Source of the DNA: Myxococcota bacterium
GTDB taxonomy: Bacteria > Myxococcota_A > Polyangia > Polyangiales > Sandaracinaceae
NCBI GenBank assembly: GCA_036149055.1
Contig: JAYZQJ010000213.1
Coordinates: 1-25,344, forward strand
Direction: 5' to 3'
DNA length: 25,344 bases
The position numbers and the translations under genes were made by a program. Of the stretch, positions 1 through 24,305 are shown piece by piece (position 1 is the first letter of the stretch; every line of letters begins with the position of its first letter). The notes under the pieces were generated by a model. That model was not told where the DNA came from and made no database searches. It worked only from the letters and a program-made list of their open reading frames with translations.

Positions 1-119
1 TGGCGCGTGCGGCGACCTCGCTGCGCTCGTCGCCTGCCGTCGTCTCGGGTCACTGTCGTGGAAGCGGGCGGGGGTGCCCCGGCGCCATTAGTTGCCACCT
101 CTCGAGCCCCACGCGAGGC

Positions 120-552
120 GCTGTCGTCGACACCCCAACGACCCGCCACAACCTGGCGAGCCTCCACCCCGCCGCCAGCTCGTCCCTCTGCGCTCTGCGT
201 CTCTGCGAGAGCAAAAAAGCTGTCGACGAGACAGCAACGACCCGCCAAGACGCGGCGAGCCTCCACCCCGCCCCCAGCTCGCCCCTCTGCGACCCTGCGT
301 CTCTGCGAGAGCAAAAAGGCTGTCGACGAGACAGCAACGCCCGGCCCAACGCGGCGAGCCTCCACCCCGCCGCCAGCCCGCCCCTTGGCGTCTTCGCGTC
401 TTTGCGAGAGAAAAAAGGCGGCCGCCGACACCCCAACGACCGCCAAAACGCGGCGAGCCTCCACCCCGCCGCCAGCTCGTCCCTCTGCGTCTCTGCGAGA
501 GAAAAAAGCTGTCGACGAGACAGCCCAGCGCGCCCTGGCGTCTCTGCGAGAG
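120..552. repeat. Degenerate tandem repeat, about 4.4 copies of a 99-bp unit
   Basis: Anchor GCGAGCCTCCACCCCGCC starts at 156, 255, 354 and 453 (period exactly 99). Each unit also carries a GCGTCT(C/T)TGCGAGAG motif and an A-tract; a partial extra motif lies near 536-552. Confidence 0.93.
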
Positions 553-569
553 CGAGGAGCCTCCGAGGC

Positions 570-1934
570 CTACTTGCGGCGCTCGCGCGCCCGGCGCCGC
601 AGGGCATCCTCGCCGACGAGGCCCTTGCGCTCGTCGAGCAGCATCGCGCCGCCGTCGCGCTGCGCGATCGCCCGGACCGCCGCCTCGACGACCTTCACCA
701 GGGTCGCGCGCTCGGCGTCGGCGCCCTCGGGCAGCACGAGGTTGCGGTAGCTGAGGTCGAAGCTGCGGCTGCGGGCGAGCGCGGGTCGATCCTCGCTGCG
801 CTTGGTCAGGACCACGTCGACGCTCGCCTCGCCCGCGCGGAACCGGAAGGTGCAGCGACGTCGGTCGAGGAGCAGCCCCTCGAGCTCCGCGCCGAGCGGC
901 TCGGCCACGCCGTCGACCAGCGCGCGCCAGGCCGGGTGGTCGGCGCTCGGCGCCGCGTCGCGGGCGCCTCGCGGATCGTCGCTGCCGAAGGCCAGGCCGT
1001 CCTCGGGCTCGCGCCACGGGGTCGTCCGCGGGGTCGGCACCAGGCGATCCGTCTCCCAGCCGTACTTGTGCACGTACTCGTGGGTCAGGCCGAGGCAGGC
1101 CTCGCCGTGCTCGCACTTCGCCTCGTAGAGGCAGGCGAACTTCGGGTAGAGGTCGTAGAACTCCTCGACGATCACCACGTCCGGCTGGGTGTTGTCGATG
1201 AGGTGCCCGTGCCGGCCGAGGGCGCAGCGGGGCACGTACTTCACCGCGCAGTCGACGCCGCGCGCCTCCGCCCGATCGAGCGCCGCGATCATCGCCGGGC
1301 CCAGCCGCGAGAGCGGCGCGATGAGGCCACGCTCGTCCGCCTTGTCCTCCATCGGCAGGTAGTTCCACCACTCCATGCGCGCCGGCTCGAGCGGGGCCAC
1401 GGTGTCCACGATCCGCGCGAGGTGATCGACGTTGAGCGTCGTCAGCACGGTGTTGGTCAGGATCGTCACCCCGAGCGCGCGCAGGTTGGTCAGCCCCGCC
1501 CACGCCTCCTCGAACGATCCCTCCCGCTGCGAGATGTAGTCCTGGGTGGCCGCGTCCGGGCCGTGCAGCGAGACGAAGAACTCGTCGACGCCGGCCTCGA
1601 CGAGGCGCTCGGCGAACGCACGATCGGCGAGGCGCCGCCCGTTGGTCTGCAGCCGGATGTGCTCGAAGCCGCCGCGCTCCCGGGCGACGCGCAGGTAGTC
1701 GAAGAGGCGCTTCTCGAGCGTGACCTCGCCGCCGGTGAAGGTGACGCGGCGGTACCGCGGCGCCTTGCCGTTCTCGTCCACCGCCTGCTCGAAGCGCTCG
1801 AAGGGCACCCCCTTGTAGAGGTTCATGCCCTCCTGGACGATGCAGAAGCGGCAGGCGGAGTGACAGTGGAAGTCCACCGTCACCGTCAGGTCCTCGAAGC
1901 GCGTCGGCTCGAAGCGGCCCTTATAGCTCTGCAT
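570..1934 (-). CDS. Radical SAM protein (HxsC/MoaA-like, auxiliary Cys cluster) with an extra C-terminal domain
   Basis: CHSACRFC (CxxxCxxC), TFTGGEVT, LQTNGRRL, VSLHG motifs. C-terminal PRC...CLYEAKCEHGEACLG...Y...YG Cys motif, then about 130 extra residues. Starts 3 bp after the upstream stop. Confidence 0.93.
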   Translation of the reverse strand: MQSYKGRFEPTRFEDLTVTVDFHCHSACRFCIVQEGMNLYKGVPFERFEQAVDENGKAPRYRRVTFTGGEVTLEKRLFDYLRVARERGGFEHIRLQTNGRRLADRAFAERLVEAGVDEFFVSLHGPDAATQDYISQREGSFEEAWAGLTNLRALGVTILTNTVLTTLNVDHLARIVDTVAPLEPARMEWWNYLPMEDKADERGLIAPLSRLGPAMIAALDRAEARGVDCAVKYVPRCALGRHGHLIDNTQPDVVIVEEFYDLYPKFACLYEAKCEHGEACLGLTHEYVHKYGWETDRLVPTPRTTPWREPEDGLAFGSDDPRGARDAAPSADHPAWRALVDGVAEPLGAELEGLLLDRRRCTFRFRAGEASVDVVLTKRSEDRPALARSRSFDLSYRNLVLPEGADAERATLVKVVEAAVRAIAQRDGGAMLLDERKGLVGEDALRRRARERRK

Positions 1935-1937
1935 GGA

Positions 1938-2792
1938 TCAGATGGTCCCGTAGAAGCTCGTCTTCGTCGCGCGCGCCTCGGCGCCGCGCATCTCGAAGTC
2001 GAGCCCCACGTCGAAGTAGAGGTGATCGAGCTCCGCCGCGTGGGCCCGGGTGAAGTCCACCAGGGAGCGCGGCCAGCCGCGCCGCTCGAGGAACCAGAGC
2101 AGCGCGTCCACGTCGATCCCGGAGTAGTAGACGCCGTCGCGCAGCCGCTTCTTCGCCACGCAGACTCGCTTGCAAGCGAACAGCTCGGGCGGCATCACCT
2201 CCGCGAGCACCCGCGGATCCTCGTAGTCGAGGAAGAGGCTGCTCCGCAGCAGGCCGAGCACGGTGTCGATCTCCGGCTTCGGGCGGAGGAAGCGGTAGGT
2301 GTTGGCGAGCTCGCGGCGGTCCTCGCGCACCACGTAGGAGCGACCCTCGTGGGCGTCGGTCCCGGTCAGGTAGAGGTTCAGCTCGCGGACCTCGCCCGAC
2401 GCGAGGATCTCCGCGTCGAGGTCGAAGCTGACCATCATGTAGGGCACCGTCTCCCGGACGCGCGGCAGGATTCTGAGGTGCGGCGCGAGCAGCTCGGTCA
2501 GCCCGCTCACCGTCGCCCGCGGGTCCTCCTTCTGCGGGTCGTAGACGTAGAGCTCGAAGAAGAGCCGCTCGCCGTCGTGCTTGGCGCCCCAGACGACCAT
2601 GTCGCGGCCGAGGCCCTCGATCAGCGCCTCGAGCGCGGGCCAGGCGGCCTCCCGGAGGCCGGCGAGCTCGAGCGTGTGCAGGAGCAGGTTGTCCGCGCGC
2701 AGCTTGCCCTCGGGCGGCCGCCGCGGCCGGTAGGGCTGGAGGCAGTAATCGAAGTAGCGGTCGCCCGCTGCGCTGCGGCGGAGCTCAGGCAC
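1938..2792 (-). CDS. Hypothetical protein, predicted ABBA/PT-barrel-like fold
   Basis: 284-aa ORF with normal composition; its start overlaps the stop of the upstream rSAM gene. Ten short beta-like segments occur in five hairpin pairs separated by helices. The CDS is well supported; the fold is inference. Confidence 0.85.
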   Translation of the reverse strand: MPELRRSAAGDRYFDYCLQPYRPRRPPEGKLRADNLLLHTLELAGLREAAWPALEALIEGLGRDMVVWGAKHDGERLFFELYVYDPQKEDPRATVSGLTELLAPHLRILPRVRETVPYMMVSFDLDAEILASGEVRELNLYLTGTDAHEGRSYVVREDRRELANTYRFLRPKPEIDTVLGLLRSSLFLDYEDPRVLAEVMPPELFACKRVCVAKKRLRDGVYYSGIDVDALLWFLERRGWPRSLVDFTRAHAAELDHLYFDVGLDFEMRGAEARATKTSFYGTI

Positions 2793-4431
2793 TCTGGAGC
2801 AGCGGCAGGGCGTCGGGGTGAACGGCGGCGATCACGTGGCGCAGGCGCTCGGCCTCGAGCCGGCTGACCTCGCCGCGGTGCGAGTAGGCGAGGCCGTCCT
2901 TGGCCTCGAAGCGGGGGCGGCCCTCCTCGGCCCGGACGACCTCGAGGGTGACGCGCCCCTCGGGCGAGTCGAGATCGAAGAAGAGGCCGTCGTGCTGGTT
3001 GCGGATCGTGCGGAGACGCCACCCGCCGACCGCGCGGACCCGCTCGCGCACCGCCTCGACGAGCTCGGGATCGACCGCGATCACCGACCGGTCGGCGACG
3101 TCGTCGATGGTGCGCGGCCCGGGACGCTGCTCGGCGCGCCGCCTCACCTGGAAGCCGGCCCAGTGATCGGCCACCACCGCGTTCTCGTGCTGCAGCGACA
3201 CGCGCTTCACGTGGTCGAGCTCGCGGCGCAGGTCCTCCGGCGACCAGCCCGCGCACGAGCGGATGAGCCAGGTCTCGGGATCGAAGTCCACCTTCAGCGC
3301 GGGATCGGAGCGGTCGAGCAGCGCGTCGGGCAGGACGAGCGTCCAGAACACCCGCACCGAGTCGGCGATCTCGACCGCCTTCTCGAAGGTGCGGCGGAAG
3401 GACTTCGGGTTGTCGCCGGGGAGGCCGAGCATCAGCTCGAGCTCGATCGGCCAGTGCTCCCGGACCACGTCGCACACCCGCTCGAAGCGCTCGAGGTCGA
3501 AGGGCCGGCCGAGCCCGTGCAGCACGTCCGCGTCGAAGCTCTGCACGCCGATCGCCACCTGACAGCGCCCGAACGAGGTCAACAGCTCCACGTGCTCGTC
3601 GCGCAGGAAGGTCGGGTAGAGGTGCCCGTGGACCAGGCTCTCCTTGAGCACGCCGGTCTGCCGCTCCGCCTCGGCGAGGCTCCGGAACGCGCGCGGGCTG
3701 AGGTTGAAGGCGGCGTCGAGGCAGAAGATGTTCGGCACCTCGGCGCGGCGCAGGCCCTCGAGGTGACGCGCGAGGTACTCGGCCGAGTGCACCCGGTCGG
3801 CGCGCTGCTCGCCCCACTGACAGAAGTTGCAGTGGATCGGGCAGCCCCGGTACGTCTCGAGGTAGCCGGTGAAGCCGTGGGGCGCGATGTCGAGCTGGTA
3901 GGGCGTCGGGTAGGCCTCGATGTCGACCCGCTCGACCGCCCCGGTGCTCTTCCAGCCCAGGGCGTGCGGCACGAGCAGGCCGGGCATCGCGGTCCAGCCC
4001 TCGCGGCGGTGCTCGCGCACGATGTCGCGGAAGATGCCCTCGCCCTCTCCGGTCACCGCCGCGTCGACGGTGTTCTTCAGGTCGGCGTAGGGCGGCAGCG
4101 CGAACACCGAGGTGCGCGCCTGCGGGCCGCCGATGACGATCTGCACCGAAGGATCCCAGCGCTTCAGCTTGGCGGCGAGATCCCGGAACGGGCCGATCGA
4201 CCAGAGATAGACCGACGCCGCCACGAGGGTGGGCCGGAAGTCGACGATCGCCTCGAAGAAGGCCTCCGGATCTCGCTCGCGGAGATCGATGACTTTCACC
4301 TCGACGTCGTCGAACGTGGGGTCGGCGCGCAGCGACGCCTCGAGCTTGCGCACCGAGTAGGTGAACGGGGTGAAGTCGCCGCTGGGATCCTCCCAGACCG
4401 GATCGACGGACACCAATGCGACTCGCGTCAC
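2785..4431 (-). CDS. Cobalamin (B12)-binding radical SAM protein with an extra C-terminal domain
   Basis: N-terminal B12-binding Rossmann motifs (LVAASVYLWS, IVIGGPQA, VTGEGEG), ETYRGCPIHCNFCQW, IGVQSFD, LMLGLPGD. GTG start overlaps the upstream TGA (GTGA). Confidence 0.93.
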   Translation of the reverse strand: MTRVALVSVDPVWEDPSGDFTPFTYSVRKLEASLRADPTFDDVEVKVIDLRERDPEAFFEAIVDFRPTLVAASVYLWSIGPFRDLAAKLKRWDPSVQIVIGGPQARTSVFALPPYADLKNTVDAAVTGEGEGIFRDIVREHRREGWTAMPGLLVPHALGWKSTGAVERVDIEAYPTPYQLDIAPHGFTGYLETYRGCPIHCNFCQWGEQRADRVHSAEYLARHLEGLRRAEVPNIFCLDAAFNLSPRAFRSLAEAERQTGVLKESLVHGHLYPTFLRDEHVELLTSFGRCQVAIGVQSFDADVLHGLGRPFDLERFERVCDVVREHWPIELELMLGLPGDNPKSFRRTFEKAVEIADSVRVFWTLVLPDALLDRSDPALKVDFDPETWLIRSCAGWSPEDLRRELDHVKRVSLQHENAVVADHWAGFQVRRRAEQRPGPRTIDDVADRSVIAVDPELVEAVRERVRAVGGWRLRTIRNQHDGLFFDLDSPEGRVTLEVVRAEEGRPRFEAKDGLAYSHRGEVSRLEAERLRHVIAAVHPDALPLLQSA

Positions 4432-5153
4432 GGGGAGATCCTACCGGCGAGGCTGCGGTCCAGCCAGGGCGGCTCCGGCGCGCCCGCCGCCGCGAAGTAG
4501 CAGCCCACCAGGAGCCGCAGCCCGGGCCTCCTCAGGGACCGCGCCGCGTGCCAGGTGCACTGCTCGAGGGCGACCAGATCGCCGGCGCGCGGGCGGAGCT
4601 CGATCATGCCCGGCCAGACCTCGTCGTCGAGCGGGTGCGGCGGCGCGGTGGGCTCGCCCTCGCGCCGCGGGTGCACGTAGAGCGGGCCGGTCTCGTCGTC
4701 GAGGTCGTCGAGGTAGAGCAGCGTCAGGACGCGCTCGGTCCGGGGGCGCGCCGGCCACTCGCCGCGCTGCACCCGCTGCCCCTCCTCCTCGCCGTCGATG
4801 TGGGTGTGCCAGGAGAAGAACGGCCGGCGCCGGTCGCTCGCCACCGCGCCGGCGAGCTCGAGGCGCACATCCGGGCCGAGGGTCTCTCGCATCGCGTCGA
4901 TCAATCGCGGCGCGAGCACCCGCGGCGCGAGCGCGGGCCGGGCGTCGAGCAGGCGGCTGATCGCGAGCCCGGTCGAGGTGACCGCGACCGTCTCGGAGAC
5001 CTGCACGGTGCTCGCCGCGAAGAAGCCGGGCGGATCGAGCTCGGCGATCAGCGCCTCGATCTCGGCGCGCAGCGCGGCCGTCTCCTCGCGGTCGAGGAGG
5101 CCCTCGAGGATGGCGTAGCCCTGCTCCCGGATCTGCGCGCGCACCGGGCGCAT
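4428..5153 (-). CDS. Phytanoyl-CoA dioxygenase (PhyH)-family Fe(II)/2-oxoglutarate oxygenase
   Basis: C-terminal part of ORF 4428..6584: EQGYAILEGLL, WHTHID, LYLDD...GPLYVHP, AGDLVAL...TWHAA and a terminal Arg (GLRLL). Start is ATG 5153, or GTG 5144 if leaderless. Confidence 0.88.
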   Translation of the reverse strand: MRPVRAQIREQGYAILEGLLDREETAALRAEIEALIAELDPPGFFAASTVQVSETVAVTSTGLAISRLLDARPALAPRVLAPRLIDAMRETLGPDVRLELAGAVASDRRRPFFSWHTHIDGEEEGQRVQRGEWPARPRTERVLTLLYLDDLDDETGPLYVHPRREGEPTAPPHPLDDEVWPGMIELRPRAGDLVALEQCTWHAARSLRRPGLRLLVGCYFAAAGAPEPPWLDRSLAGRISP

Positions 5154-5161
5154 TATAGACT
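5152..5161. promoter_or_regulatory. Overlapping divergent -10 elements (bidirectional, leaderless-type promoter)
   Basis: Minus strand TATAAT (5157-5152) lies 7 nt before in-frame GTG 5144; plus strand TAGACT (5156-5161) lies 7 nt before in-frame GTG 5169. This is the only AT-rich patch locally and there is no SD sequence. Confidence 0.65.
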
Positions 5162-5168
5162 CTCCGCC

Positions 5169-6158
5169 GTGCGCACCGCTCGGATCGCCGCCGCGTTCGA
5201 CCGCCTCGAGGCGACCCGGGGTCTCTCCGGCGCGCGGGCCGGGAGCGACGAGGCCGGGCTGTGGGTCCGCGCCGGCGACGAGCGCTTCGAGGCGCACCCC
5301 GGCGGCTGGCGGAGCCGAGCCCCGATCGACGAGGAGACCCGCGCCGCGCTCGACGGCCTGCGCGAGGCGCTCCGGGTGACGCCGCCGCGGTCCGAGGCGC
5401 TCGATCGACGCAGCGCGACGCGGCTGCTGGGCGACGACGGCCCGCGGCTCGCCGAGACCGTCGAGGCGTTCGCGGAGTGCTACGGCCAGCCGCTCGTGGC
5501 GGTGTTCCTCGAGGGCGACCCGGTCCCGTCGATCCGCTTCCCGGCCGTCGCGCCGGAACAGGAGCTGCTGATGTACGCGCCGCCGCCCTTCCGCGAGGAC
5601 GCGCGAATGCAAGCCTACCTGCTGGACCTCGGCTTCGAGGTGGATCGGGGCTGCCGCGTCTCCACCGTGCCGCTGCCGGCGTCGTTCGCGCGGCGCCGGG
5701 CCAGGCTGGAGGCGCGCGGCGGGCTGCGGCCGGAGCTGGTCCCGCTGCGCTGGCCGCTCTTCTCTCCCGCCGCGTGGCTGCGAGAGATCGCGCGCGGGGT
5801 CATCCCGGTGAACGTGAACGGTCGCCTCGGCGGGTGGCTCGCGCGGCTGGCGCGGCTGCCGGTGCCGGGGGCCACGCGCGCCTACCTCAACAATCACTTC
5901 CACGCGCTCGGGCACGACGTGGGGCTGCACGGGCTCGCGCTCCATCGGGTGCCGGCGCCGGCGATGGCCGAGCTGCGGCGGCTGGCGCGGGGGGCCCGCA
6001 GCGTGGAGCGCGCGGCTCGGTTCTTCGAGGAGACGCTCACCCGCGCCTGCGTGGATCTCTGGGCCGAGGTGCGTCGCCCGGAGGAGTTCGCCCCGCGCTT
6101 CGAGCGGGCGTTCGGAGGGCTCCGGCGTGAGCTCGCCCATGAGGCCGGCCTTGCCTGA
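5169..6158 (+). CDS. Hypothetical protein with a His-rich putative metal-binding motif
   Basis: C-terminal part of ORF 4416..6158 starting at GTG 5169, divergent from the dioxygenase. Contains HFHALGHDVGLHGLALH. Its 3' end overlaps the next gene. Confidence 0.78.
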   Translation: MRTARIAAAFDRLEATRGLSGARAGSDEAGLWVRAGDERFEAHPGGWRSRAPIDEETRAALDGLREALRVTPPRSEALDRRSATRLLGDDGPRLAETVEAFAECYGQPLVAVFLEGDPVPSIRFPAVAPEQELLMYAPPPFREDARMQAYLLDLGFEVDRGCRVSTVPLPASFARRRARLEARGGLRPELVPLRWPLFSPAAWLREIARGVIPVNVNGRLGGWLARLARLPVPGATRAYLNNHFHALGHDVGLHGLALHRVPAPAMAELRRLARGARSVERAARFFEETLTRACVDLWAEVRRPEEFAPRFERAFGGLRRELAHEAGLA

Positions 6159-7923
6159 CGTCGCCCGGGTCCGCACCAACGAGACCTGCAACCAGAACTG
6201 CGCGTTCTGCGACCGCCGATCGCCGCGCGAGGACCGCGCCTTCGTGCGGGACGCGGCCGCGCGCATCGACGCCGCCGACGCCGAGACGCTGATCCTCACC
6301 GGCGGCGAGCCCACCCTCCGGCGCGACCTGGCCGCGCTGATCGCGCGCGCCGACGCCCGCACGGTGGTGCTCGAGACGAACGCCGCGCTCGTCGACGAGG
6401 CCCGAGCCCGACAGCTCGCCGAGGCCGGCCTCGACGTGGCGCGGGTGCACCTCCCGGCGTGGGGCGACGCGCTCGACGCGATCACCCGCGACCCGGGCGG
6501 CTTCGAGGCCACGGTGCGCGGCGTACGCGCGCTCCACGCGGCGGGCGTCCGGGTGGAGGCGTCGGCCCCGATCGTGCGCGCCAACGCGGCGCTGCTGCCG
6601 TCGCTGCCGGAGCAGCTGACCGCTCTCCCGGTGCAGGCGCTGCACGTGCTCGCCCCGACGCGGGCGCCCGATCCGTCGACGCTGCTGCCCCTGCCGGAGG
6701 CGGCCCGGGTGCTCGAGCGGGTCGCCGACGCGGCCCGGCGGGTGGAGCTGCCGCTCAGCCTCGACCCGCACGCGAGCGTGCCGCCGTGTCTCCTGGAGCG
6801 CCCGGCCCGTCACGCGCACCTCTACTCGCTGACGCCCGGCGGCCGCACCAGGCCGGGGCACCGCCAGCTCGAGGCGTGCGACGGCTGCCGGGTCTCGGAT
6901 CGCTGCCCGGGTGTGCCGGAGCACCTGGCCGCGTCGCTCGACGGAGCGCTGCGACCGATCGACGGCGACCGGGTGCGCCGGCGCCTCAGCCTGATCTCGA
7001 CGCCCGAGGCGCAGGTCGCCCGCGAGCTCTACCAGGACGAGATCCTCCGCCCCGCCGGCCAGGCCGCGCGCCCCGTGCGCACGGTGCGCATCGGCTTCCG
7101 CTGCAACCAGGCCTGCGCCTTCTGCTTCGTCTCCACCCACCTCCCCTCGGCGCCGCGCGCGGACGTCGAGCGCGCCATCCTCGAAGCCGCGCGCGAGGGA
7201 GCCGCGATCGCGATCAGCGGCGGAGAGCCCACCCTCGATCCCGCGCTCCCCGAGTACGTGCGGCTCGCCAAGGACGCGGGCGCGGACTTCGTCGAGATCC
7301 AGAGCAACGCGACCCGGGTCGACGACGCGCTCGCTGCCTCCCTTCGGAGCGCCGGCGCCGACGTGATTCACGTCTCCTTGCACGCCGCCGACGCCGCCCT
7401 CTCGGACGCGATCACCGACGCGCCCGGCACCTTCGACCAGACGGTCCGCGGCCTCGACGCGCTGCACGCCGCGGGGCTCCGCCTCCGGCTCAGCTACGTC
7501 TTCCACCGCCGCAACCTCGCCGCGTTCACCGACCTGATCGAGCTCGCCGCCTCGCGCTGGCCGGGCACGAGCGTCGCCGTCTCCTTCGTCGCGCCGTCGA
7601 CCGACCTCGTGCCGCGCACCGAGGCCCTCATCCCGCGCTACCGGGAGGTCATGCCGCACCTCGCCGCCGGCATCCGGATCGCGCGCGACCGCGGCGTCGC
7701 GCTCAGCGGCTTCGAGTCGCTCTGCGGCGTCCCCCTCTGCCTCGCCCCGCCCGACCTCCTCGACGTCTTCGCCGTCGCCGAGGTCGACGACGGCTACACC
7801 GACGGCGAGACCCTCCACCCGGCCCCGTGCGACGACTGCGCCCTCCGCGCCCGCTGCTTCGGCGTCCGCCGAGGCTACGTCGAGCTCTACGGCACCGACG
7901 AGCTCTCCCCCCTCCCGCGGTGA
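6127..7923 (+). CDS. Tandem double radical SAM protein (two HxsC-like domains)
   Basis: Domain 1: CNQNCAFC, LTGGEPTL, LETNA, PPC...CDGCRVSDRCPG. Domain 2: CNQACAFC, ISGGEPTL, IQSNA, PLC...CDDCALRARCFG. SD-like GGAGGG at 6114-6119 before GTG 6127; alternative ATG at 6139. Confidence 0.93.
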   Translation: MSSPMRPALPDVARVRTNETCNQNCAFCDRRSPREDRAFVRDAAARIDAADAETLILTGGEPTLRRDLAALIARADARTVVLETNAALVDEARARQLAEAGLDVARVHLPAWGDALDAITRDPGGFEATVRGVRALHAAGVRVEASAPIVRANAALLPSLPEQLTALPVQALHVLAPTRAPDPSTLLPLPEAARVLERVADAARRVELPLSLDPHASVPPCLLERPARHAHLYSLTPGGRTRPGHRQLEACDGCRVSDRCPGVPEHLAASLDGALRPIDGDRVRRRLSLISTPEAQVARELYQDEILRPAGQAARPVRTVRIGFRCNQACAFCFVSTHLPSAPRADVERAILEAAREGAAIAISGGEPTLDPALPEYVRLAKDAGADFVEIQSNATRVDDALAASLRSAGADVIHVSLHAADAALSDAITDAPGTFDQTVRGLDALHAAGLRLRLSYVFHRRNLAAFTDLIELAASRWPGTSVAVSFVAPSTDLVPRTEALIPRYREVMPHLAAGIRIARDRGVALSGFESLCGVPLCLAPPDLLDVFAVAEVDDGYTDGETLHPAPCDDCALRARCFGVRRGYVELYGTDELSPLPR

Positions 7924-7941
7924 CCTCCACGAATTCGGACG

Positions 7942-8076
7942 AGGGGACGGAGTGAACTTGTGAACCTACGTAAGACTTCGTCTCACAAGCGGACCCGGCT
8001 GCTAGCCGACCAACAGACCCGCACACAACAGATGAGGGTTCGGCGGACACAAGTTCACAAGTGAACTCCGTCCCCT
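7942..8076. mobile_element. MITE/REPIN-like element with 24-bp imperfect terminal inverted repeats
   Basis: AGGGGACGGAGTGAACTTGTGAAC (7942-7965) and GTTCACAAGTGAACTCCGTCCCCT (8053-8076) are 22/24 complementary and flank a lower-GC 87-bp interior between convergent genes. Mobility is inferred. Confidence 0.6.
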
Positions 8077-9001
8077 ACCCCTCGATCGGGGACTCCAGGG
8101 CCCACGGGGCGGGAGGGGGATCGGGGGAGTCGTGCAGTAGGCCTCGGGACCACTCGAGGAGGTTTGGGGTGGGTGCGCCTCCGTGGGCGCGGTAGCTGAG
8201 GGCGCGGCCGGCGGCGCGGGCGAAGGCGCGGGGGGTCTCGGCGTCGGGGGCGAGGAAGAAGGAGACGGTGACGGGGCCGGCGCGCACGACGGCCGCCGGC
8301 TCGAGGGAGAAGAGCGCGGGGGCGTCGGCGTCGCGCGGCTTCACGTAGGCGGTCCAGCGCGCGGGGTCGGCGGCGAGGACGCCGACGGAGCGAGGCGACG
8401 CCGGCGGGAACGGCGCGTGGGCGCAGATCGTCTCCCAGGAGAAGCCGGGGAGGTGGCCGAAGGCGGCGTCGAGCCGGGCCGGCGACGCGGGGCGGAGGGC
8501 GACGAACCAGGCGTGCGATCGGCCGTCGGCGTAGGCGCTGACGACGCGGCCGGCGATCAGCTCGTCGGCGCGCTCGAGGAGCGGCGAGGGGAGCGACCGG
8601 ACCTGGTCGTAGCGCTTGAGCTCGACCCGACCATCGGACATCGCGTTGACGCCGATCACGTGGGGCGCGCCGTCGACTCCGAAGCGGGCGGCGACCGCGG
8701 CGCGGGCGTCTTCGGGCGCGTCCGACGCGTTGACGTAGACCTTCAGACACGCCCGGGCGAGGTCCCATCCCGCGATCAGCGGGAGCTCCGGGCCGCACGC
8801 CTCGAGCGCGCGATCCAGCAGCCGGCTCGGGGGCACGGCGAGCGCCTCGCGCAGGGTCTCGACCACCGCGGCCGGGGCGCGCTCGATCATCATGCGGTCG
8901 CCGCGGAGCCCGGCGGAGCCCGCGCGCACCGACGCCTCGAGCTGAGCCTCGGTCACCCCATGATGCCGGAGGTGGCGCCGCAGCTCCGCCTCGAAGATCA
9001 C
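8075..9001 (-). CDS. Putative F-family (PagF/LynF/TruF-like) ABBA prenyltransferase with an extra C-terminal module
   Basis: C-terminal 308 aa of ORF 8075..11248; GTG 9001 overlaps the relA TGA. Motifs LEASVR...R, AGWDL..LKVY...DAPE and VIGVN...DGRVELKRY parallel those I recall from PagF/LynF. The CDS is well supported; the function is moderate confidence. Confidence 0.7.
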   Translation of the reverse strand: MIFEAELRRHLRHHGVTEAQLEASVRAGSAGLRGDRMMIERAPAAVVETLREALAVPPSRLLDRALEACGPELPLIAGWDLARACLKVYVNASDAPEDARAAVAARFGVDGAPHVIGVNAMSDGRVELKRYDQVRSLPSPLLERADELIAGRVVSAYADGRSHAWFVALRPASPARLDAAFGHLPGFSWETICAHAPFPPASPRSVGVLAADPARWTAYVKPRDADAPALFSLEPAAVVRAGPVTVSFFLAPDAETPRAFARAAGRALSYRAHGGAPTPNLLEWSRGLLHDSPDPPPAPWALESPIEG

Positions 9002-11157
9002 GCCCGCTCGACGTCGTAGACGCCTTCGATCTGGCTGATGCGGCGCATCAGGGTGCGCAGCTTGGCGACGTCGCTGACCGTGAACTGGAAGTGGTTCACC
9101 GCGGAGCCGTCCTCGCCGACCCGGCAGTTCGCCTCCTGGATGTTCACGCCGCTCTCGGTGAACGCGGCGCTCACGTTGGCGAGGATGCCGGGGCGGTCGG
9201 CGGTGCTGATGCGGAGCGCGACCGGGCGGTCGACCTTCACCGCGTCGGACCAGCTCACCTCGAGGCGGCGCTCCGGGTCGAGCTCCATCGCCTTGGGGCA
9301 GCCGCGGCGGTGCACGGTCACGCCACGCCCCCGGGTGATCCAGCCGGTGATCGGGTCGCCGGGCAGCGGGTTGCAGCACTTGGCGAAGCGCACGAGCACG
9401 TCGTCGACGTCCTCGATCTTGATGCCGCCGTTGCCCCTGTCCTTGCCGGTGACGCGCCGGACCGTCTTCTCGAAGAAGCTCGGGCGGAGCGACTCGCGCG
9501 CCTTCATGTCGTCGGCGGGGACCGCGCGCTCGTAGACCTCCTGCGCGCTCGCCTTGCCGTAGCCGACCTGCGCGAAGAGCTCGTCGGTCGAGTCGACCTC
9601 GAAGCCGTGGGCGACCGAGTCGGTGTCCTTGCTCTTGAGCCACCGGGAGAACGAGTGATCGTTCTTGTGGAAGGCGCGCTCGACCAGCTCGCGGCCCAGC
9701 TTGATCGCGCTCTTGCGCTCCTCGTCCCGGATGTGCGCGCGGATCCGCGAGCGCGCCCGGCCGGTGGCGACGAAGTCGAGCCAGTCTTTGTTGGGCGACT
9801 GCTGCGGGCTGGTGATGATCTCGATCGTGTCGCCGTTGTGCAGCTTGTACCGCAGCGGGACGATCGCGCCGTTCACCCGCGCGCCGGCGCAGTGCTCGCC
9901 GACCTCGGAGTGGATCGCGTAGGCGAAGTCGACCGGGGTCGCGCCGCGCGGGAAGACCTTCAGCTCGCCGGCGGGGGTGAAGACGTAGACCTCGTCGTTG
10001 AAGAGGTCGACCTTCACCGAGTCGAGGAACTCCGCCGGGTCCGAGACCTCCTGCTGGAACTCCATCAGCTGGCGGAGCCACGCGAACTGCGCCGCGTCCT
10101 TGGCGTCGAGCCCGCCGGTCTTCTCCTTGTACTTCCAGTGCGCCGCGATGCCGAGCTCGGCCGTGCGGTGCATCTCCTGGGTCCGGATCTGGACCTCGAT
10201 GCGCCGCTGCCCGGGGCCGATGACCGTCGTGTGGAGCGACTGGTACATGTTCGGCTTCGGGAGCGCGATGTAGTCCTTGAAGCGCCCGGGGATCGGCGTC
10301 CACTGCGAGTGCACGACGCCGAGCGCCGCGTAGCAGTCGGCGACCGTCTCCATGATCACCCGGAAGGCGACGAAGTCGTGGACCTGCTCGAACTCGCAGT
10401 TGTTCTGGCGCATCTTCCGCCAGATCGAGTACTTGTGCTTGATCCGCCCGCCGACCTCGGCCGCGAAGCCGCGCTCGATGAGCATCTTCTGCAGGCGCTT
10501 GGTGACGTCCTGGATGTACTTGTCGCGGTCGCGCGAGGCCCGCTTCGCCTTGCGGCTGATCTCCCCGTAGCCCTCGGGGTGCAGGTACTTGAAGCTCAGG
10601 TCCTCGAGCTCGCTCTTCAGCCAGTAGATGCCGAGGCGGCCGGCGAGCGGCGCGTAGATGTCGAGCGTCTCCTGCGCGATCCGCTCCTGCTTCTCCGGCT
10701 TCATGTGCTGGAGCGTCCGCATGTTGTCGAGGCGGTCGGCCAGCTTCACGAGGAGCACGCGGATGTCCCGCGCCATCGCGACCAGCATCTTGCGGAAGCT
10801 CTCCGCCTGCTGGTCCTCCTTGCAGGTGAAGTTGATGCGGCCGAGCTTGGTCACGCCGTCGACGAGGAAGGCCACCTCCTCGCCGAACAGGTCGACCATC
10901 TCCTCGTTGGTCGCCGCGGTGTCCTCGACCACGTCGTGTAGGAGCGCGGCGCACACGCTCGCGGGGTCGAGGCGCATGTCGGCGATGATGTGCGCGACGG
11001 ACACCGGGTGGATGAAGTAGGGGTCCCCCGACTTCCGCATCTGCCCGTCGTGGGCCTTCGCCGAGTAGACGTAGGCCTTGTTGATCAGGTCCACGTCCGC
11101 TGCCGGGTGGTAGCTCTTCACCTTCTCGACGATGTCGGTCAGCCGAACCATGGCCAT
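8998..11157 (-). CDS. relA: Bifunctional (p)ppGpp synthetase/hydrolase (long RSH, Rel/SpoT)
   Basis: HD hydrolase (RKSGDPYFIHP, LLHDVVEDT, KLADRLDNMRTL), synthetase (RFKDYIALPKPNMYQSLHT, EVQIRT), TGS (VYVFTP, TPVDFAYAIHS), zinc finger (AKCCNP...HRRGC) and ACT (DRPGILANV). SD GGAG at 11163-11160. Confidence 0.98.
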   Translation of the reverse strand: MAMVRLTDIVEKVKSYHPAADVDLINKAYVYSAKAHDGQMRKSGDPYFIHPVSVAHIIADMRLDPASVCAALLHDVVEDTAATNEEMVDLFGEEVAFLVDGVTKLGRINFTCKEDQQAESFRKMLVAMARDIRVLLVKLADRLDNMRTLQHMKPEKQERIAQETLDIYAPLAGRLGIYWLKSELEDLSFKYLHPEGYGEISRKAKRASRDRDKYIQDVTKRLQKMLIERGFAAEVGGRIKHKYSIWRKMRQNNCEFEQVHDFVAFRVIMETVADCYAALGVVHSQWTPIPGRFKDYIALPKPNMYQSLHTTVIGPGQRRIEVQIRTQEMHRTAELGIAAHWKYKEKTGGLDAKDAAQFAWLRQLMEFQQEVSDPAEFLDSVKVDLFNDEVYVFTPAGELKVFPRGATPVDFAYAIHSEVGEHCAGARVNGAIVPLRYKLHNGDTIEIITSPQQSPNKDWLDFVATGRARSRIRAHIRDEERKSAIKLGRELVERAFHKNDHSFSRWLKSKDTDSVAHGFEVDSTDELFAQVGYGKASAQEVYERAVPADDMKARESLRPSFFEKTVRRVTGKDRGNGGIKIEDVDDVLVRFAKCCNPLPGDPITGWITRGRGVTVHRRGCPKAMELDPERRLEVSWSDAVKVDRPVALRISTADRPGILANVSAAFTESGVNIQEANCRVGEDGSAVNHFQFTVSDVAKLRTLMRRISQIEGVYDVERA

Positions 11158-11428
11158 GCTCCGTCAGCCCCTCCCAGGCTCTGGGGGAGGCTGCTCCTTC
11201 CGCACGCGCGTCTGGTCGGTGGCGGACAACACTACGCCGGCCTTGCACTGCAAGGATTGGGCGAAGACGGTATCACTGCCGAAAAAGCCGGACAAGATTA
11301 CGGACCCGGAGTGATCACAGGATAGCCACGTTCGGCCCCCGGATCGATTCGCCATGGTCACCACCATGAGGAATGTCTCGGGCTCTTCTCCCTCGGCGTC
11401 CACTCCTCCCCGTGACTCCCGGATGAGC

Positions 11429-11434
11429 TACGCT
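11429..11434 (+). promoter_or_regulatory. Putative -10 element of a leaderless pfk transcript
   Basis: TACGCT lies 7 nt before ATG 11442, with no SD sequence. Confidence 0.45.
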
Positions 11435-11441
11435 GCGCGGC

Positions 11442-12605
11442 ATGGCGGAGCCTTTTCTTCGGCCGAGCAAAGCGCCCCGGGGCGAGCGCCGGCTGCTGGC
11501 GGTGTTCGACGGCGGGAACGCGCCCGGGTACTCGTCGGTGGCGGTGGCGATCACCGAGGAGTGCGAGCGGCGCGGCTACGAGCTGTGGGCGGCGACGCAG
11601 GGCTTCCGGTCGCTGACGAAAGACGGCACGGCGGAGCTCGCGTTCGAGCGGCTCACGGTCGGGCGGAAGGAGCGCTATCGGCTGCTCGCGGAGGGCATCC
11701 CGGCGCGATCGATGGGGCGACGGGTGCAGGATCCGGGGAGCGACTTCCGGAGCGAGCGCTACCAGGGCTTCCGCGACCCGGCGGTGCGGGCCCAGGCGGC
11801 GAAGGTGTTCCGGAAGCAGGGCTTCACGCACCTGGTCGCGGTCGGCGGCAACGGCACGCTCGAGGGCACGCGCGCCTGGATGGAGGCGTTCGGGCCGGAG
11901 CGCCCGCGGACCGGCTTCGTGAACGTCTCGATCGACAACGACCTGACCGGCGACCGCGCGATCGGGTTCCTCACCGGGGTCGAGGCGGGGGCCACGATCG
12001 CGCGCGGGCTCTACGAGGACGGCTACACCCACAAGCGCGTCTACCTGCTCGAGATGATGGGCAACCGGAGCGGCCGCCACGCGCTCCACTGCGGCGTCGC
12101 CTCGCGCGCGCACCTGATCGTGCTGCCCTTCTTCTCGCTCCCGGACGAGGTGCTCGCCGAGATGGCCGAGGGCCTGGCCGGGCTCGACTCGGCGCTGGTG
12201 GTGGTGGCCGAGGGCTACGAGCGCGAGGCGCGCGAGCGCATGCCGGGCCGGCCGTCGGCGAGCGCCTACCTGCAGTCGCAGCTCGCCGCCCACGGGCTGG
12301 TCGACGAGCCGGAGCGCCGCGTGATCGCCGAGCCGTTCAGCCGCTACCTCCGCGGGGCACGCCCGGGCTTCGCCGACATCTCCGCCGCGTACCTCAAGGT
12401 CTCGCTCCTGTTCGACGCCTTCGAGGAGGGCCGCACCGAGGTGATGCCCTACGTGCTCGCCGCCAACGACTCCGGGGTGCGCGCCTTCGACGAGATCGCC
12501 CGCGAGGACCGCGTCGAGCGCAGCTTCCTCCCGCTCCTCGATCGCCTGGTGCTCCCGAAGTTCCGCCGCTGGGTCGCCGACAAGTTCACCGGCGTCGCCG
12601 TGTGA
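11442..12605 (+). CDS. pfkA: 6-phosphofructokinase (PfkA)-family sugar kinase, divergent active site
   Basis: GGNAPG, GSDFRSER, VGGNGT, SIDND, IGFLT, LEMMGN, VAEG and LRG motifs occur in PfkA order. Confidence 0.85.
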   Translation: MAEPFLRPSKAPRGERRLLAVFDGGNAPGYSSVAVAITEECERRGYELWAATQGFRSLTKDGTAELAFERLTVGRKERYRLLAEGIPARSMGRRVQDPGSDFRSERYQGFRDPAVRAQAAKVFRKQGFTHLVAVGGNGTLEGTRAWMEAFGPERPRTGFVNVSIDNDLTGDRAIGFLTGVEAGATIARGLYEDGYTHKRVYLLEMMGNRSGRHALHCGVASRAHLIVLPFFSLPDEVLAEMAEGLAGLDSALVVVAEGYEREARERMPGRPSASAYLQSQLAAHGLVDEPERRVIAEPFSRYLRGARPGFADISAAYLKVSLLFDAFEEGRTEVMPYVLAANDSGVRAFDEIAREDRVERSFLPLLDRLVLPKFRRWVADKFTGVAV

Positions 12606-13424
12606 TCAATCCACGCCGAAGCTGATGGCGGTCTGCAGGCCGACCGAGCTGCGCTGATCCACCACGACCGCGGCGGTGATCGCGCCGGCGGCGAGCACGG
12701 CGCCGCCGACGAGGATCCAGAAGAGCGGCTCCTCGAAGAAGGTCACGCCGCCGCCGCCGCCGTTCTCCGCGGCGCCGCCGCCGCCGCTCGGCATCCGGCC
12801 GACCACGCGGGGGGCGAAGGGCGAGCCCTCGGCGAGCAGCACGTTGCCGTGCATGTCGATGATCTGGACGTAGTACTCGACGCGATCGGCCTCGGCCGCG
12901 CCGTCGACCGGGACCGCGAGCACCGACTGGGCCTGGTACTCCTGCTCGGTGTACTCGGCCGCGCCCTCGAGGCGCGCCGCGAGGCGCACCCGCCGCGCCA
13001 TGTCCGTCGGGTCGCGCAGCTCCACGCGCACCGCCGAGCTCGCCCGGTCGAGGCCGGTCTCGACCGCGAGCCGCCCCTGCCGGGCCGCCCAGATGCCGCG
13101 CGCCTCGAGGTACGGGTTGCGGGCCCGCGGCGGCACGCTCTCGTCGAGCTGCGCGTCCGGGTCGATGCCGAGCATGCGCACGAAGTAGTCGCGCGCCGCG
13201 TCCTCCTCGCCCATCAGCGACGAGGCGGTCCCGAGCAGCTGATAGATCCGCACCAGCTCGTCGGGCGGGTGTCCGCCCTCGCGCAGCGCCTCGAGCGCGT
13301 GGTCCCGCGTGCCCTCGAAGTCGACCTCGAGGTAGGCGCTCTCCGCCTGCGCCAGCTCGCTCTGGGCGAGCGCGGGCGAGGCGACGAAGGTGACCAGCAG
13401 GGCGAGCCCGGCGGCGCGGATCAC
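12606..13424 (-). CDS. Exported TPR-like protein with a C-terminal membrane segment
   Basis: GTG 13424 overlaps the upstream TGA. Signal peptide ending ALA-Q, TPR-like helices (IYQLLG...AARDYFVRMLGIDPD), a beta-rich domain, a Gly linker and a hydrophobic FFEEPLFWILVGGAVLAAG segment. Confidence 0.85.
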   Translation of the reverse strand: MIRAAGLALLVTFVASPALAQSELAQAESAYLEVDFEGTRDHALEALREGGHPPDELVRIYQLLGTASSLMGEEDAARDYFVRMLGIDPDAQLDESVPPRARNPYLEARGIWAARQGRLAVETGLDRASSAVRVELRDPTDMARRVRLAARLEGAAEYTEQEYQAQSVLAVPVDGAAEADRVEYYVQIIDMHGNVLLAEGSPFAPRVVGRMPSGGGGAAENGGGGGVTFFEEPLFWILVGGAVLAAGAITAAVVVDQRSSVGLQTAISFGVD

Positions 13425-13894
13425 AGGCAACCTCGCGTGCACTTGTCCTGCGCGTTGGCGCAGCCGGGCGTGCGGCCCTGGGTCGAGACCGCGTAGTCGG
13501 CGGTCGGGTAGAGCTCGACCTCGATGGCCGGCGCGTCGGCGTAGGCCTCGGCGACGTGGCAGCCGCTCACGATGATGCGGTTGTCGCCGTCCTGCCCGAG
13601 CGCGACGTAGGCGTGGGGGCCCTCGGGGGCGGTGAACCCGACGCCCTCGCGGAGCTCGCAGACCGGGCGCCAGTCGCTGTCGATGACCGGGTCGCCGAAG
13701 TCGCTCGCGTCGATGCGCTCGAGGAGCGAGGCGCAGACGTCGAGGTCCCCGCTCGCGTCGTAGACCAGGAGCCGGCCCTGCTCGGTGAAGAGGAAGTTCT
13801 CCTCGCGCGGGAAGCCGAGATCGACCCGCACCGGCTCGGGCGCGCAGCCCGCCACCAGGCACGTCAGGAGCGCCGCCGTCAGCGCGCGGCTCAT
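13421..13894 (-). CDS. Cys-containing lipoprotein of unknown function
   Basis: ATG 13894 overlaps the upstream TGA. MSRALTAALLTCLVAGC lipobox, several Cys, C-terminal CANAQDKCTRGC. Confidence 0.82.
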   Translation of the reverse strand: MSRALTAALLTCLVAGCAPEPVRVDLGFPREENFLFTEQGRLLVYDASGDLDVCASLLERIDASDFGDPVIDSDWRPVCELREGVGFTAPEGPHAYVALGQDGDNRIIVSGCHVAEAYADAPAIEVELYPTADYAVSTQGRTPGCANAQDKCTRGCL

Positions 13895-15204
13895 CGGATC
13901 TCCTCCGCGTTGAGGGTGCGGAACCGGCAGAACGATCCGCGATCGCCGGAGAGCGTGGTCCGGTCGTCGCAGCTCGCGGTGGAGCCGGGCGCGTCGTAGC
14001 GCCAGATCTCGTAGGCGGTGACCACGTTGCCGAGGACGTCGAAGTTCACGTTGCCGCTCGCGCCCTGGTAGTCGACGTCGGTGCCCCGGCGCACGTCCGC
14101 GAGGCCCGCCGCCAGCGCGCCCGGCTCGACGAGGCCGCCGGTGTCCGAGGGCGGGCCCGACACCTGGAGCAGCGCGTCCCGGATGGCGACTCCGTCGGTG
14201 GAGCCGGCCCGGGCGATCGCGAGCGCGAGGAGCGCGACCGCGTCGTATTGGTTGGACGAGAAGGGGATGGGATCCTCGCCGTAGAAGGCGCGGTAGCGGT
14301 CGCGGAAGGCGTTGTACTCGCGGGTGGCCGGGTCGGTGATCGGCGAGGTGCCGAAGAAGCCGTCGATGAGGCCCGGGTCGGCCGCCTGGTCGACGAAGCC
14401 CGGGGCCCGGATCCCGTCGGTGCCGATCCAGGTCACGTCGGGGGTACCGCTGAGCGAGGCCCAGTCGCGCACGATGGTGCCGGCCGACCCCGGGAAGGCG
14501 ACGAGGGCCACGCAGTCCGGCATCGCGTCGCGGATCATCGACAGCTCGGCGGTGTAGCTGGCCTGCTCGTCGGCGAACGGGACCTGGGCCGCGATCACGC
14601 CGCCGCCGGCGCGGAACTCGCGCACGATGGCGTCGCCGAAGGGCTGGCCGTAGCTGTCGTCGAGGTGGAGCACGGCGAGGCTCGCGCAGGCGAGGTTCTC
14701 GGCGGCGATCGAGACCACCTTGGCCTGGAGGATGTCGGCCGGCGCGGTGCGGAAGAGGAAGCGCTCGCCTTCCGCCTGCATCATCGCCCGATCGGTGATC
14801 AGGTCGGAGGTCGAGCAGCAGGAGATCTGCGGGATCTGCGCCGGCCCGGTGATCTGGGCGAGCCCGAGGCTGATGCTGCTCGCCGCGGCGCCGATGACCG
14901 CGACCACCTCGTCGTCGTTCACGAGCCGGGTGGCGATGGCCTCGGCGCGCCCCGGGTTGGTCTCGTCGTCGACCACGATCAGCTCGATGGGCCGGCCGTC
15001 GATCGGGCCGCCGGCCGCGTTGACCTCGCGCTCCGCCACCCGCGCCGCGTCGCGCCAGCTCGGTCCGTCGGTGCCGAGCGTGCCGGTCAGCGAGGTCACG
15101 AGGCCGACCTTGATCGGCGCGAGCGTCCCGTCGGGCAGGGTCGGCTGCGGACCGCAGGCCAGCAGGCCGAGCGCCAGGACGAGCGATGCGCACCCCCTCA
15201 GCAT
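13891..15204 (-). CDS. Branched-chain amino acid-type (LivJ/LivK-like) substrate-binding lipoprotein
   Basis: LLAC lipobox, IKVGLVTSLTG, VNAAGG.IDGRPIELIVVDD, VIGAAAS, FRTAPAD, YDAVALLALA, YQGASGNVNFD. Start ATG 15204. Confidence 0.92.
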   Translation of the reverse strand: MLRGCASLVLALGLLACGPQPTLPDGTLAPIKVGLVTSLTGTLGTDGPSWRDAARVAEREVNAAGGPIDGRPIELIVVDDETNPGRAEAIATRLVNDDEVVAVIGAAASSISLGLAQITGPAQIPQISCCSTSDLITDRAMMQAEGERFLFRTAPADILQAKVVSIAAENLACASLAVLHLDDSYGQPFGDAIVREFRAGGGVIAAQVPFADEQASYTAELSMIRDAMPDCVALVAFPGSAGTIVRDWASLSGTPDVTWIGTDGIRAPGFVDQAADPGLIDGFFGTSPITDPATREYNAFRDRYRAFYGEDPIPFSSNQYDAVALLALAIARAGSTDGVAIRDALLQVSGPPSDTGGLVEPGALAAGLADVRRGTDVDYQGASGNVNFDVLGNVVTAYEIWRYDAPGSTASCDDRTTLSGDRGSFCRFRTLNAEEIR

Positions 15205-15211
15205 CCTCGGG

Positions 15212-15220
15212 AACCTACCA
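15212..15220 (-). promoter_or_regulatory. Extended -10 element, leaderless-type
   Basis: Minus strand TG-G-TAGGTT lies 7 nt before ATG 15204. Confidence 0.5.
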
Positions 15221-15256
15221 TAGGGCCGGGGGCCCGGCGCACCTTCCGCGCGCGTG

Positions 15257-15262
15257 TATGCT
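15257..15262 (+). promoter_or_regulatory. Putative -10 element, leaderless-type
   Basis: TATGCT lies 6 nt before ATG 15269. Confidence 0.5.
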
Positions 15263-15268
15263 CCCCGG

Positions 15269-17253: not shown

Positions 17254-17257
17254 CCGG

Positions 17258-19144: not shown

Positions 19145-19180
19145 TCGGTCCCCCGCCACCGGGAGGCCGGTGACGCCGTC

Positions 19181-19209
19181 AGTGTCTGATCGGCCTCCCC
19201 CGCTGTCAA
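19181..19209 (-). promoter_or_regulatory. Putative sigma70 promoter for the kinase gene
   Basis: Minus strand TTGACA (19209-19204), 17-nt spacer, then GACACT (19186-19181). Confidence 0.45.
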
Positions 19210-19255
19210 CGCGACCAGGGCGGACATCCGGTGGAAATCCATGGGGATAGAGCCG

Positions 19256-21012: not shown

Positions 21013-21053
21013 TCGACGCCATGATAGCGCGAGGGGGCCACCGCCCCCACCGA

Positions 21054-21374: not shown

Positions 21375-21469
21375 GGGGTCAGGGTGGCACGCCCGAGGGC
21401 GGCAGATCCAGAACGGGTGGGCTATGCTCCGCGCCGGCGGAGCCGGGCGTCCCTCGCCCGGCCTCGCAC

Positions 21470-24262: not shown

Positions 24263-24305
24263 CCCCGCGCTGGCGGGGGACCCGCTCCGGGCCCAGATAG
24301 GGCTC

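Follow-up and report, generated by a model that had tools for sequence, protein, structure and literature searches.

Which substrate is modified by the products of the seven genes, here called A to G (Table 1), that lie together on a 25,344-bp contig from a Myxococcota bacterium? The window, by which we mean this entire contig (C213), belongs to a 9.9-Mb assembly (G000) that is 96% complete; its proteins have their closest named homologues in Sandaracinaceae and Polyangiaceae, and the runs that contain it are mostly marine; parts of it also occur in four RNA runs. We find that the conserved core of the cassette consists of a barrel protein, B, a radical S-adenosylmethionine (SAM) enzyme, A, and a second, canonical-looking barrel. 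Regarding the substrate we favour, with slightly less confidence than doubt, the view that the cassette serves the His-Xaa-Ser (HXS) system of myxobacteria as an accessory arm for post-translational tailoring, with a substrate, HxsA4, that is encoded separately.

Both B and G turned out to be barrels: their models (predicted local distance difference test, pLDDT, 95.9 for B and 93.8 for G) show the 10-stranded antiparallel barrel wrapped in helices of the ABBA or prenyltransferase (PT) fold. In a wide structural search the best match of B reached Z 13.4 (root mean square deviation, rmsd, 4.1 over 245 residues), and the best match of G was PatF with Z 15.6 (rmsd 3.4 over 220 residues). For each of the two proteins the top 19 rows were all ABBA prenyltransferases, Foldseek concurs, and all solved structural matches are aromatic or peptide prenyltransferases. 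When the profiles of B and G were compared with the PDB by sequence only chance matches were obtained, and the ABBA relationship of both is visible by fold comparison only. A profile comparison of B with G detected no relation either (probability 0.3%), and a third barrel family, found in other phyla, resembles G weakly (E 0.002). A preliminary description of this DNA had counted 'one or two' prenyltransferase-fold proteins, of which there are thus two, and had likened G to the F-family prenyltransferases of cyanobactin pathways (LynF/TruF/PatF, PagF, LimF, KgpF). The likeness holds for the fold, for PatF as the best structural match and for the residue pattern E..R(+14)..KxY..KxY..Y, spaced as in ABBA enzymes, but not for the family models: neither TIGR04445 nor PF19156 matched B or G at E 0.01, and G matched no Pfam or NCBIfam model. 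Further differences are the identity of only 8–18% between B or G and solved members, the extra C-terminal module of G, and a window without cyanobactin precursor or protease.

The active-site residues set the two barrels apart. In G, the residues E22, R36, K87-x-Y89, K129-x-Y131 and Y219 are nearly invariant across 65 sequences and are spaced as in AuraA, for which the accessible part of PMC11696170 gives an acceptor Glu and, as basic diphosphate-binding residues paired with shield tyrosines, R118, K205/Y207, K278/Y280 and Y423 (residues matched by strand order and spacing, with no superposition). B has E80-x-Y82-x-Y84, N164-x-Y166, K71, K215, H257 and an invariant D261, as seen in 115 diverse members, and it retains Y141, Y166, Y222 and Y281. 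Fold and tyrosine shield are thus shared by both B and G with the DMATS and NphB/CloQ enzymes (e.g. AuraA, FgaPT2, PriB, CymD, NphB, AmbP1/3). In contrast to these, B has no K-x-Y diphosphate pairs, since there is no lysine two residues ahead of Y141 and Y166 (N164 takes this place before Y166, and the corresponding residue before Y141 is variable); it differs also in the acidic E-x-Y-x-Y strand, the invariant Asp, and the tie or fusion to a radical SAM enzyme. The family of B comprises 572 clusters at 50% identity and corresponds to no Pfam or NCBIfam family (115 members were scanned against NCBIfam). G is the best candidate prenyltransferase. As G holds the canonical-looking residues and B lacks the diphosphate lysines, we infer that G would be the transferase and that B has a different role.

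How firmly do these genes belong together? We examined 117 loci by six-frame translation and kept 81, after dropping 36 with <3 kb on one side, the window included. An A-type radical SAM enzyme is found ≤3 kb from B in 78 of the 81 loci (27/28 in Myxococcota and 51/53 elsewhere; the A profile used for this count was seeded from the same loci), and a second barrel is found within the same distance in 52/53 non-Myxococcota loci and 12/28 Myxococcota loci. Natural fusions join B to A-type radical SAM enzymes, to a cobalamin (B12)-dependent radical SAM enzyme, to PhyH, to G (the G-B fusion P0184) and to other barrels. The evolutionary distances of A and B are correlated (r 0.74 for 102 pairs, with 0/999 permutations as high; 0.92 for 35 Myxococcota pairs and 0.44 for 67 others), although shared ancestry by itself lifts r. 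Among 41 relatives B is present in 17, and G (14 genomes), C (13) and E (7) were found exclusively in B-positive ones; these tallies include one count each for B, G and C from an unpublished genome (G023). A match to F (at least 46% identity over most of the length) occurs in 15 of the 41, 14 of them B-positive. The preliminary description had staked its case on such co-occurrence of homologues in other genomes, and this expectation is borne out. Beyond the B-A pair gene order is labile, and G is coupled to relA solely in this genus.

A further link is provided by a module of ~95 amino acids. Profile-profile comparison aligns the C-termini of A (residues 332–440), C and G in each pairing (E 3.7e-5 to 2.3e-3), as had been noticed before, and a reversed-sequence control was clean (best E 0.16); the module profile was iterated, so that the scores of included members are inflated by construction. 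Within G000 the module is carried by five proteins, i.e. A, C, G, another B12-radical SAM enzyme on contig C74, of a type common in these clusters, and a multi-pass membrane protein with signal peptide on contig C33 (G000:C33:148064-150028). A second signal-peptide multi-pass membrane protein with the module and without Pfam match lies at L018:1635-3665; in both membrane proteins, which are GT-C-like by eye, the module directly follows the signal peptide. In relatives it also occurs on other radical SAM enzymes, on another barrel and on a lipoprotein-like protein. We considered a relation of the module to HxsD, HxsD-like, DUF3467 or SapC proteins and found no support for it (probabilities <4%). 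Enzymes that act on a common peptide substrate in pathways for peptides that are made by the ribosome and modified after translation (RiPPs) often share a recognition domain, the RiPP recognition element. By analogy, the presence of the same module on chemically unrelated enzymes suggests a shared macromolecular substrate.

The radical SAM domains of A and of both halves of F are HxsC-like, but far under every equivalog cut-off: A scores 85.5 bits against HxsC4 (cut-off 500) and 69.2 against HxsC (cut-off 267.9), and F 140.4 and 120.1, respectively. In a quick tree all 22 A-type enzymes included, which represent several phyla, group to one side of a branch (SH-aLRT 96), apart from HxsC4. C combines an N-terminal B12-binding domain (PF02310, 43 against a gathering score of 32.1) with a CxxxCxxC radical SAM domain (PF04055, 52.5 against 29.5), and reaches no named equivalog (best NCBIfam match KedN5, 75.6 against 700); it is a probable C-methyltransferase. 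The motif of D, WHxH(I/V)(D/G)...WHA, is represented by WHTHID, which, with regard to the iron triad H-x-D/E...H of such oxygenases, can be read as H-x-H or H-x-D, while most of its paralogues, of which there are often 2–4 per cluster, have WHxH(I/V)G. E, called His-rich before, is not so overall, its five His being confined to one 17-residue stretch; none of its 17 homologues has a Pfam domain, and structure and sequence searches gave no usable Atlas match and no assignment. By its conserved residues E is possibly metal-binding; it is a narrowly distributed accessory gene.

In most other respects the earlier account of the parts stands. The seven genes lie at about the coordinates given there, in two divergent, tightly packed units and a convergent G, and include four radical SAM domains (A and C have a single CxxxCxxC motif apiece, F has two) and a 2-oxoglutarate (2OG) oxygenase; the Radical_SAM, B12-binding and PhyH domains all exceed their Pfam gathering scores. 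As all NCBIfam scores are far under cut-off, the set corresponds to no known cofactor, lipid or nucleoside pathway. The gaps in the minus-strand unit D-C-B-A measure -4, -8 and 3 nt, E and F overlap by 20 nt, and G shares 4 nt with the stop of relA/spoT. Just 15 nt (window 5154-5168) lie between the divergent starts of D and E, which requires either that both promoters extend into coding DNA or that the transcripts lack a leader.

The cluster is probably not complete in the window. In a genome of the same genus (G001), whose orthologues are 75–86% identical to those of G000, a second PhyH gene and a radical SAM enzyme of ~900 amino acids come directly after A. Their G000 orthologues are found at the end of contig C227 (L030:13616-17665), together with a Cys-rich lipoprotein-like gene, and therefore this contig end is probably the left continuation of the cluster, divided by assembly. 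The enzyme on C227, an 884-aa multi-domain HxsC-like radical SAM protein, has orthologues that also flank hxs loci in B-negative genomes. A conserved small open reading frame (ORF), protease or exporter was found neither at 570-9001 nor in the probable continuation, in agreement with the preliminary description, which had suggested that the substrate may be encoded elsewhere.

A candidate for such a substrate is offered by the HXS system. According to the accessible text of Li et al. 2026 (PMC13128918), it comprises HxsD-HxsB-HxsC-HxsA, as four genes in >99.8% of cases; HxsC acts on a protein substrate, and in Escherichia coli HxsB/HxsC install a +8 Da change at a SHRSS motif. We used the families TIGR03976-03978 and, for the myxobacterial variant HxsA4/HxsC4/HxsD-like, NF038313, NF038332 and NF038315. 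HxsA4 is a peptide of ~100 amino acids (NCBIfam 82.5 against 55 bits) in which an acidic leader is followed by HCS-(HGS)n-W, and its gene adjoins hxsB, hxsD and hxsC4. In a phylum-wide draw of 300 genomes, with rows matched by hand, HxsA4 was present in 21/22 B-positive and 83/278 B-negative genomes. These figures overstate the nesting, as related genomes do not count independently and a larger genome holds more of everything. HxsA4 is also clearly present in 15/17 B-positive close relatives. The distance between B and hxsA4 is 2.8 kb in G199, 4.5 kb in G003, 22 kb in G020, 27 kb in G184, 38 kb in G019 and 62 kb in G037, six genomes that span five genera and four families. In G003, G019 and G020 the hxs core shares an island with A, B, G and F, with as many as four PhyH paralogues and with numerous further HxsC-like enzymes. 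G037 has two tandem hxsA4 precursor genes (L162:6982-7716).

In the window and in the G000 assembly, hxsA4, hxsB, hxsC4 and hxsD were not found. The window is contained in 20 runs, however, and all four of those compared with the G001 hxs locus also hold hxsD-hxsD'-hxsB-hxsA4-hxsC4, ~87–90% identical to that of G001 and with largely the same substitutions. In a possible source run the hxs locus is cut at the repeat into contigs of 6.3 and 3.4 kb. The simplest reading is that the hxs locus was omitted from the G000 bin. Searches with PADLOC returned generic radical SAM-type matches only.

The strongest single argument for a prenyltransferase slot that acts on a peptide is one metagenome locus, L213 (37% GC), with neighbours that we take to be archaeal-looking. 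Here, a membrane protein with a weak archaeal A24-peptidase match (E 0.03), hxsD, hxsD-like, hxsB (the last three all over NCBIfam cut-offs), a His-x-Ser protein, two further genes, B and a gene for a 588-aa protein follow each other on one strand. The His-x-Ser-rich, precursor-like protein (258 aa; L213:7368-8144) carries a Hint (intein-like) interruption and a CSW end. The N-terminal half of the 588-aa protein is an A orthologue (its best G000 match is A, E 2e-63 versus 7e-18), and the C-terminal half exceeds the LynF/TruF/PatF cut-off (146.6 against 140 bits), i.e. a true F-family member takes the place of G. At another locus, L216, a weak HxsB-like match is found with no precursor in view.

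Taken together, we favour an accessory arm of the HXS system because of the L213 run, the nesting with HxsA4, the proximity of B to hxsA4 and the hxs locus in 4/4 runs; because A and F score best against HxsC4/HxsC, of which HxsC is protein-acting; because the module is found on a prenyltransferase, several radical SAM enzymes and GT-C-like membrane proteins; and because the prenylation of His by ABBA enzymes has precedent in LimF, FunA and AuraA, as the accessible part of PMC11696170 describes. The cassette would act after or alongside the maturation of HxsA4 by HxsB/HxsC4. G would transfer a short prenyl group onto His imidazoles or the terminal Trp, and B, with its tyrosine cage and no diphosphate lysines, might bind or rearrange the prenylated residue and present it to A, which could carry out its radical cross-linking or cyclization. 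C would add a C-methyl group, D might hydroxylate, desaturate or halogenate, and F and the 884-aa enzyme on C227 may perform further HxsC-type chemistry, with the ~95-aa module as a common substrate-docking domain. The end product would be a lipid-anchored, further cross-linked envelope peptide.

The comparison with the known HXS system is not one of likeness alone. The HxsC-like domains with C-terminal Cys cluster, the nesting with hxsA4 and hxsB, near which the cassette lies in six genomes, and the same-strand run with hxsD/hxsB and a precursor in L213 resemble it; on the other side, all window proteins are under the HxsB, HxsC and HxsC4 cut-offs, the cassette core also exists without HxsB, and the characterized system, as far as the accessible text of PMC13128918 goes, has no prenyltransferase barrel, B12-radical SAM enzyme or 2OG oxygenase. 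Besides the overstated nesting, several observations weigh against HxsA4 as the substrate. Its sequence shows no difference between 14 B-positive and 20 B-negative loci. In no fewer than four genomes, G001, G181, G264 and G334, B and hxsA4 are separated by >100 kb (in the remaining genomes the two are on separate contigs), and the HXS core was not found in the B-positive genomes G206 (90% complete) and G005 (82%). Furthermore, the hxs contigs in the window-holding runs are not tied to the same organism. Outside Myxococcota, HxsB is over its cut-off in only 1/10 B-positive genomes, and among 79 metagenome loci, 43 of them ≥5 kb, 27 have a secretion or giant-protein context, 2 an Hxs-type context and 0 both. 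Finally, the O-methyltransferase, flavin halogenase and P-loop kinase partners seen there fit a small molecule equally well. With respect to the preliminary description, a candidate for a substrate encoded elsewhere has thus been located, on which these enzymes may act; the RiPP-like or protein-modification system is a real conserved set, but not a self-contained one, being one island of a dispersed, HXS-related gene set.

The situation in other phyla leads to a broader proposal. Of the 53 non-Myxococcota loci, 51 have an O-methyltransferase near the trio, 36 have DUF3467, 31 a P-loop kinase, 30 each a Trp halogenase and M50-HlyD, and 26 SapC, and the trio adjoins giant RTX-repeat proteins. 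A barrel is fused to DUF3467 or to a halogenase in several of these loci; fusions of a Trp halogenase with a PT barrel and of DUF3467 with one or two tandem PT barrels were observed in giant-protein loci at L082:7635-10013, L136:6771-8816 and L145:5499-7520. Such surroundings resemble the SecA_DEAD/type-I loci of Kamneva et al. 2015 (PMC4452313), as B, A and the second barrel lie amid SecA-like, HlyD, M50-peptidase and giant RTX-repeat genes. In contrast, when the main text of that paper was searched for the terms radical SAM, methyltransferase, halogenase, SapC and DUF3467, none of them turned up, and DUF3467, SapC and M50-HlyD homologues were absent from G000 by tblastn. The core of a G-like barrel, B and A appears to be portable, and elsewhere than in Myxococcota it seems to have been co-opted for giant type-I-secreted surface proteins. 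We consider it possible, though not probable, that the trio is a portable and so far undescribed protein-tailoring machine in which a prenyltransferase is coupled to B, as a repurposed non-transferase barrel (cyclase or scaffold), and to a dedicated radical SAM enzyme. Exported proteins would thereby receive a residue that is prenyl-derived, methylated and cross-linked by radical chemistry. If this holds, its targets would be His-Gly-Ser peptides in Myxococcota and archaea-like genomes and giant type-I-secreted adhesins in Proteobacteria, cyanobacteria and Desulfobacterales, and in the myxobacteria the ~95-aa module, as a new recognition domain, would tag every pathway enzyme on both sides of the membrane.

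The same neighbours can be read as parts of a small-molecule pathway, which we think rather unlikely. G would prenylate a free aromatic compound (indole, Trp, His or a nucleobase), B and A would cyclize or rearrange it, and C and D would finish it, as the O-methyltransferase and halogenases would in other phyla; the link to HXS and giant proteins would then reflect shared islands or an envelope role. The trio with its methyltransferase, halogenase and kinase does resemble a metabolite cassette, PriB/DMATS, which prenylate free Trp, head the Foldseek ranking for G, tailoring of small molecules typically involves swappable oxygenases such as the Rieske, WelO5-like and PhyH enzymes seen here, and the core persists without HxsB. 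However, the surroundings of B contain no conserved gene for scaffold building or transport, the prenyltransferase slot of L213 is occupied by a bona fide member of a peptide-prenyltransferase family, and other loci show a fusion of the barrel to DUF3467, which belongs to the secretion locus. WelO5-like 2OG enzymes with an H-C-G motif, presumably halogenase-type, adjoin B and G in three to four copies at L025 (e.g. L025:6894-8201 and L025:12370-13206).

Could the substrate be an exported myxobacterial protein other than HxsA4, comparable to the giant RTX/LEPR-XLL proteins, whose enzymes the module would mark across the membrane? This reading agrees with an HxsA4 that is invariant with or without B, with the module on signal-peptide membrane proteins and a lipoprotein-like protein and with the giant proteins, DUF3467, M50-HlyD and SapC that flank the core outside Myxococcota. 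We regard it as improbable, given the missing DUF3467, SapC and M50-HlyD homologues in G000, the lack of any further conserved candidate substrate near B in Myxococcota loci, and giant proteins without His- or Trp-rich repeats (none was seen in the 36 long ORFs next to the cassette, among which are wrong-frame calls). Still more improbable in our view is a cell-surface glycan or lipid, for which the radical SAM, B12 and 2OG enzymes would act on a lipid-linked precursor before its export by the glycosyltransferases and flippases nearby: GT2 proteins, NAD-dependent epimerases, carbamoyltransferases, UbiA, a MurJ-like flippase and membrane proteins of the multi-pass type do occur near B in several Myxococcota loci and the module is found on GT-C-like proteins, but these neighbours vary by locus, with no family in ≥3 loci, and the solved matches of B and G named above are not of this kind. 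An accidental gathering of unrelated genes, for which the labile order outside B-A and the genus-limited G-relA coupling could be quoted, is already largely refuted by the B-A adjacency, the congruent A and B trees, the fusions of B and the restriction of G, C and E to B-positive genomes.

Table 1. Position of the cassette genes and the adjacent repeat array in the window
Feature	Position	Strand	Basis or context
~99-nt interspersed repeat array, 4–5 copies	120..562	none	downstream of A
A, HxsC-like radical SAM, CHSACRFC, C-terminal Cys cluster, C-terminal module	570..1934	-	PF04055 E 2.3e-23
B, ABBA/PT-barrel protein, unnamed family	1938..2792	-	model and fold searches
C, cobalamin-dependent radical SAM with shared module	2785..4431	-	PF02310 and PF04055
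D, PhyH-type Fe/2-oxoglutarate oxygenase	4428..5153	-	PF05721 32.1 bits (cut-off 22)
E, unknown protein, conserved H-D-x-G-x-H...H	5169..6158	+	alignment
F, tandem double HxsC-like radical SAM	6139..7923 (start could be 6127)	+	two PF04055 stretches
G, ABBA/PT barrel with C-terminal shared module	8075..9001	-	model, fold, conservation

The tandem repeat array next to A contains terminator-like hairpins and T tracts on the minus strand, and 5/6 terminator-like sites found fall within it; shuffles of the region give an expectation of 1.6. The assembly has related copies of the ~99-nt repeat on 83 contigs, in many cases where a contig ends, and the array is the likely cause of the contig break. 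No Rfam family was found in the window and no sigma-70 consensus promoter at positions 1-9100. The rest of the window (8998-25238) is ordinary-looking. It holds relA/spoT, a gene of the phosphofructokinase family, lipoproteins and, at 21470-24262, a PMT_2 membrane glycosyltransferase; two further genes were identified by eye as a Ser/Thr kinase and an FHA-sigma54 activator.

Neither the classes of enzyme nor the HXS system is new, but searches of the open-access literature gave no description of an ABBA-barrel/radical SAM pairing, the B family, its radical SAM partner, the module or the gene combination. A search on SapC/DUF3467 gave only unrelated papers among those listed, and for the prenyl-indole indiacens the literature listing contained nothing on biosynthesis. 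B represents a large unnamed ABBA-barrel family with a non-standard active site that is almost inseparable from one radical SAM clade. Since the candidate substrate has only ~100 amino acids and cultured hosts of a related cassette exist (named Methylobacterium/Methylorubrum, Anabaena and Nostoc records), the question of its function is directly testable. If the favoured role as an accessory arm is correct, the recently characterized HXS anti-phage system would gain a lipid-modifying extension in myxobacteria, and the giant secreted adhesins of other phyla may bear prenyl, halogen and methyl groups.

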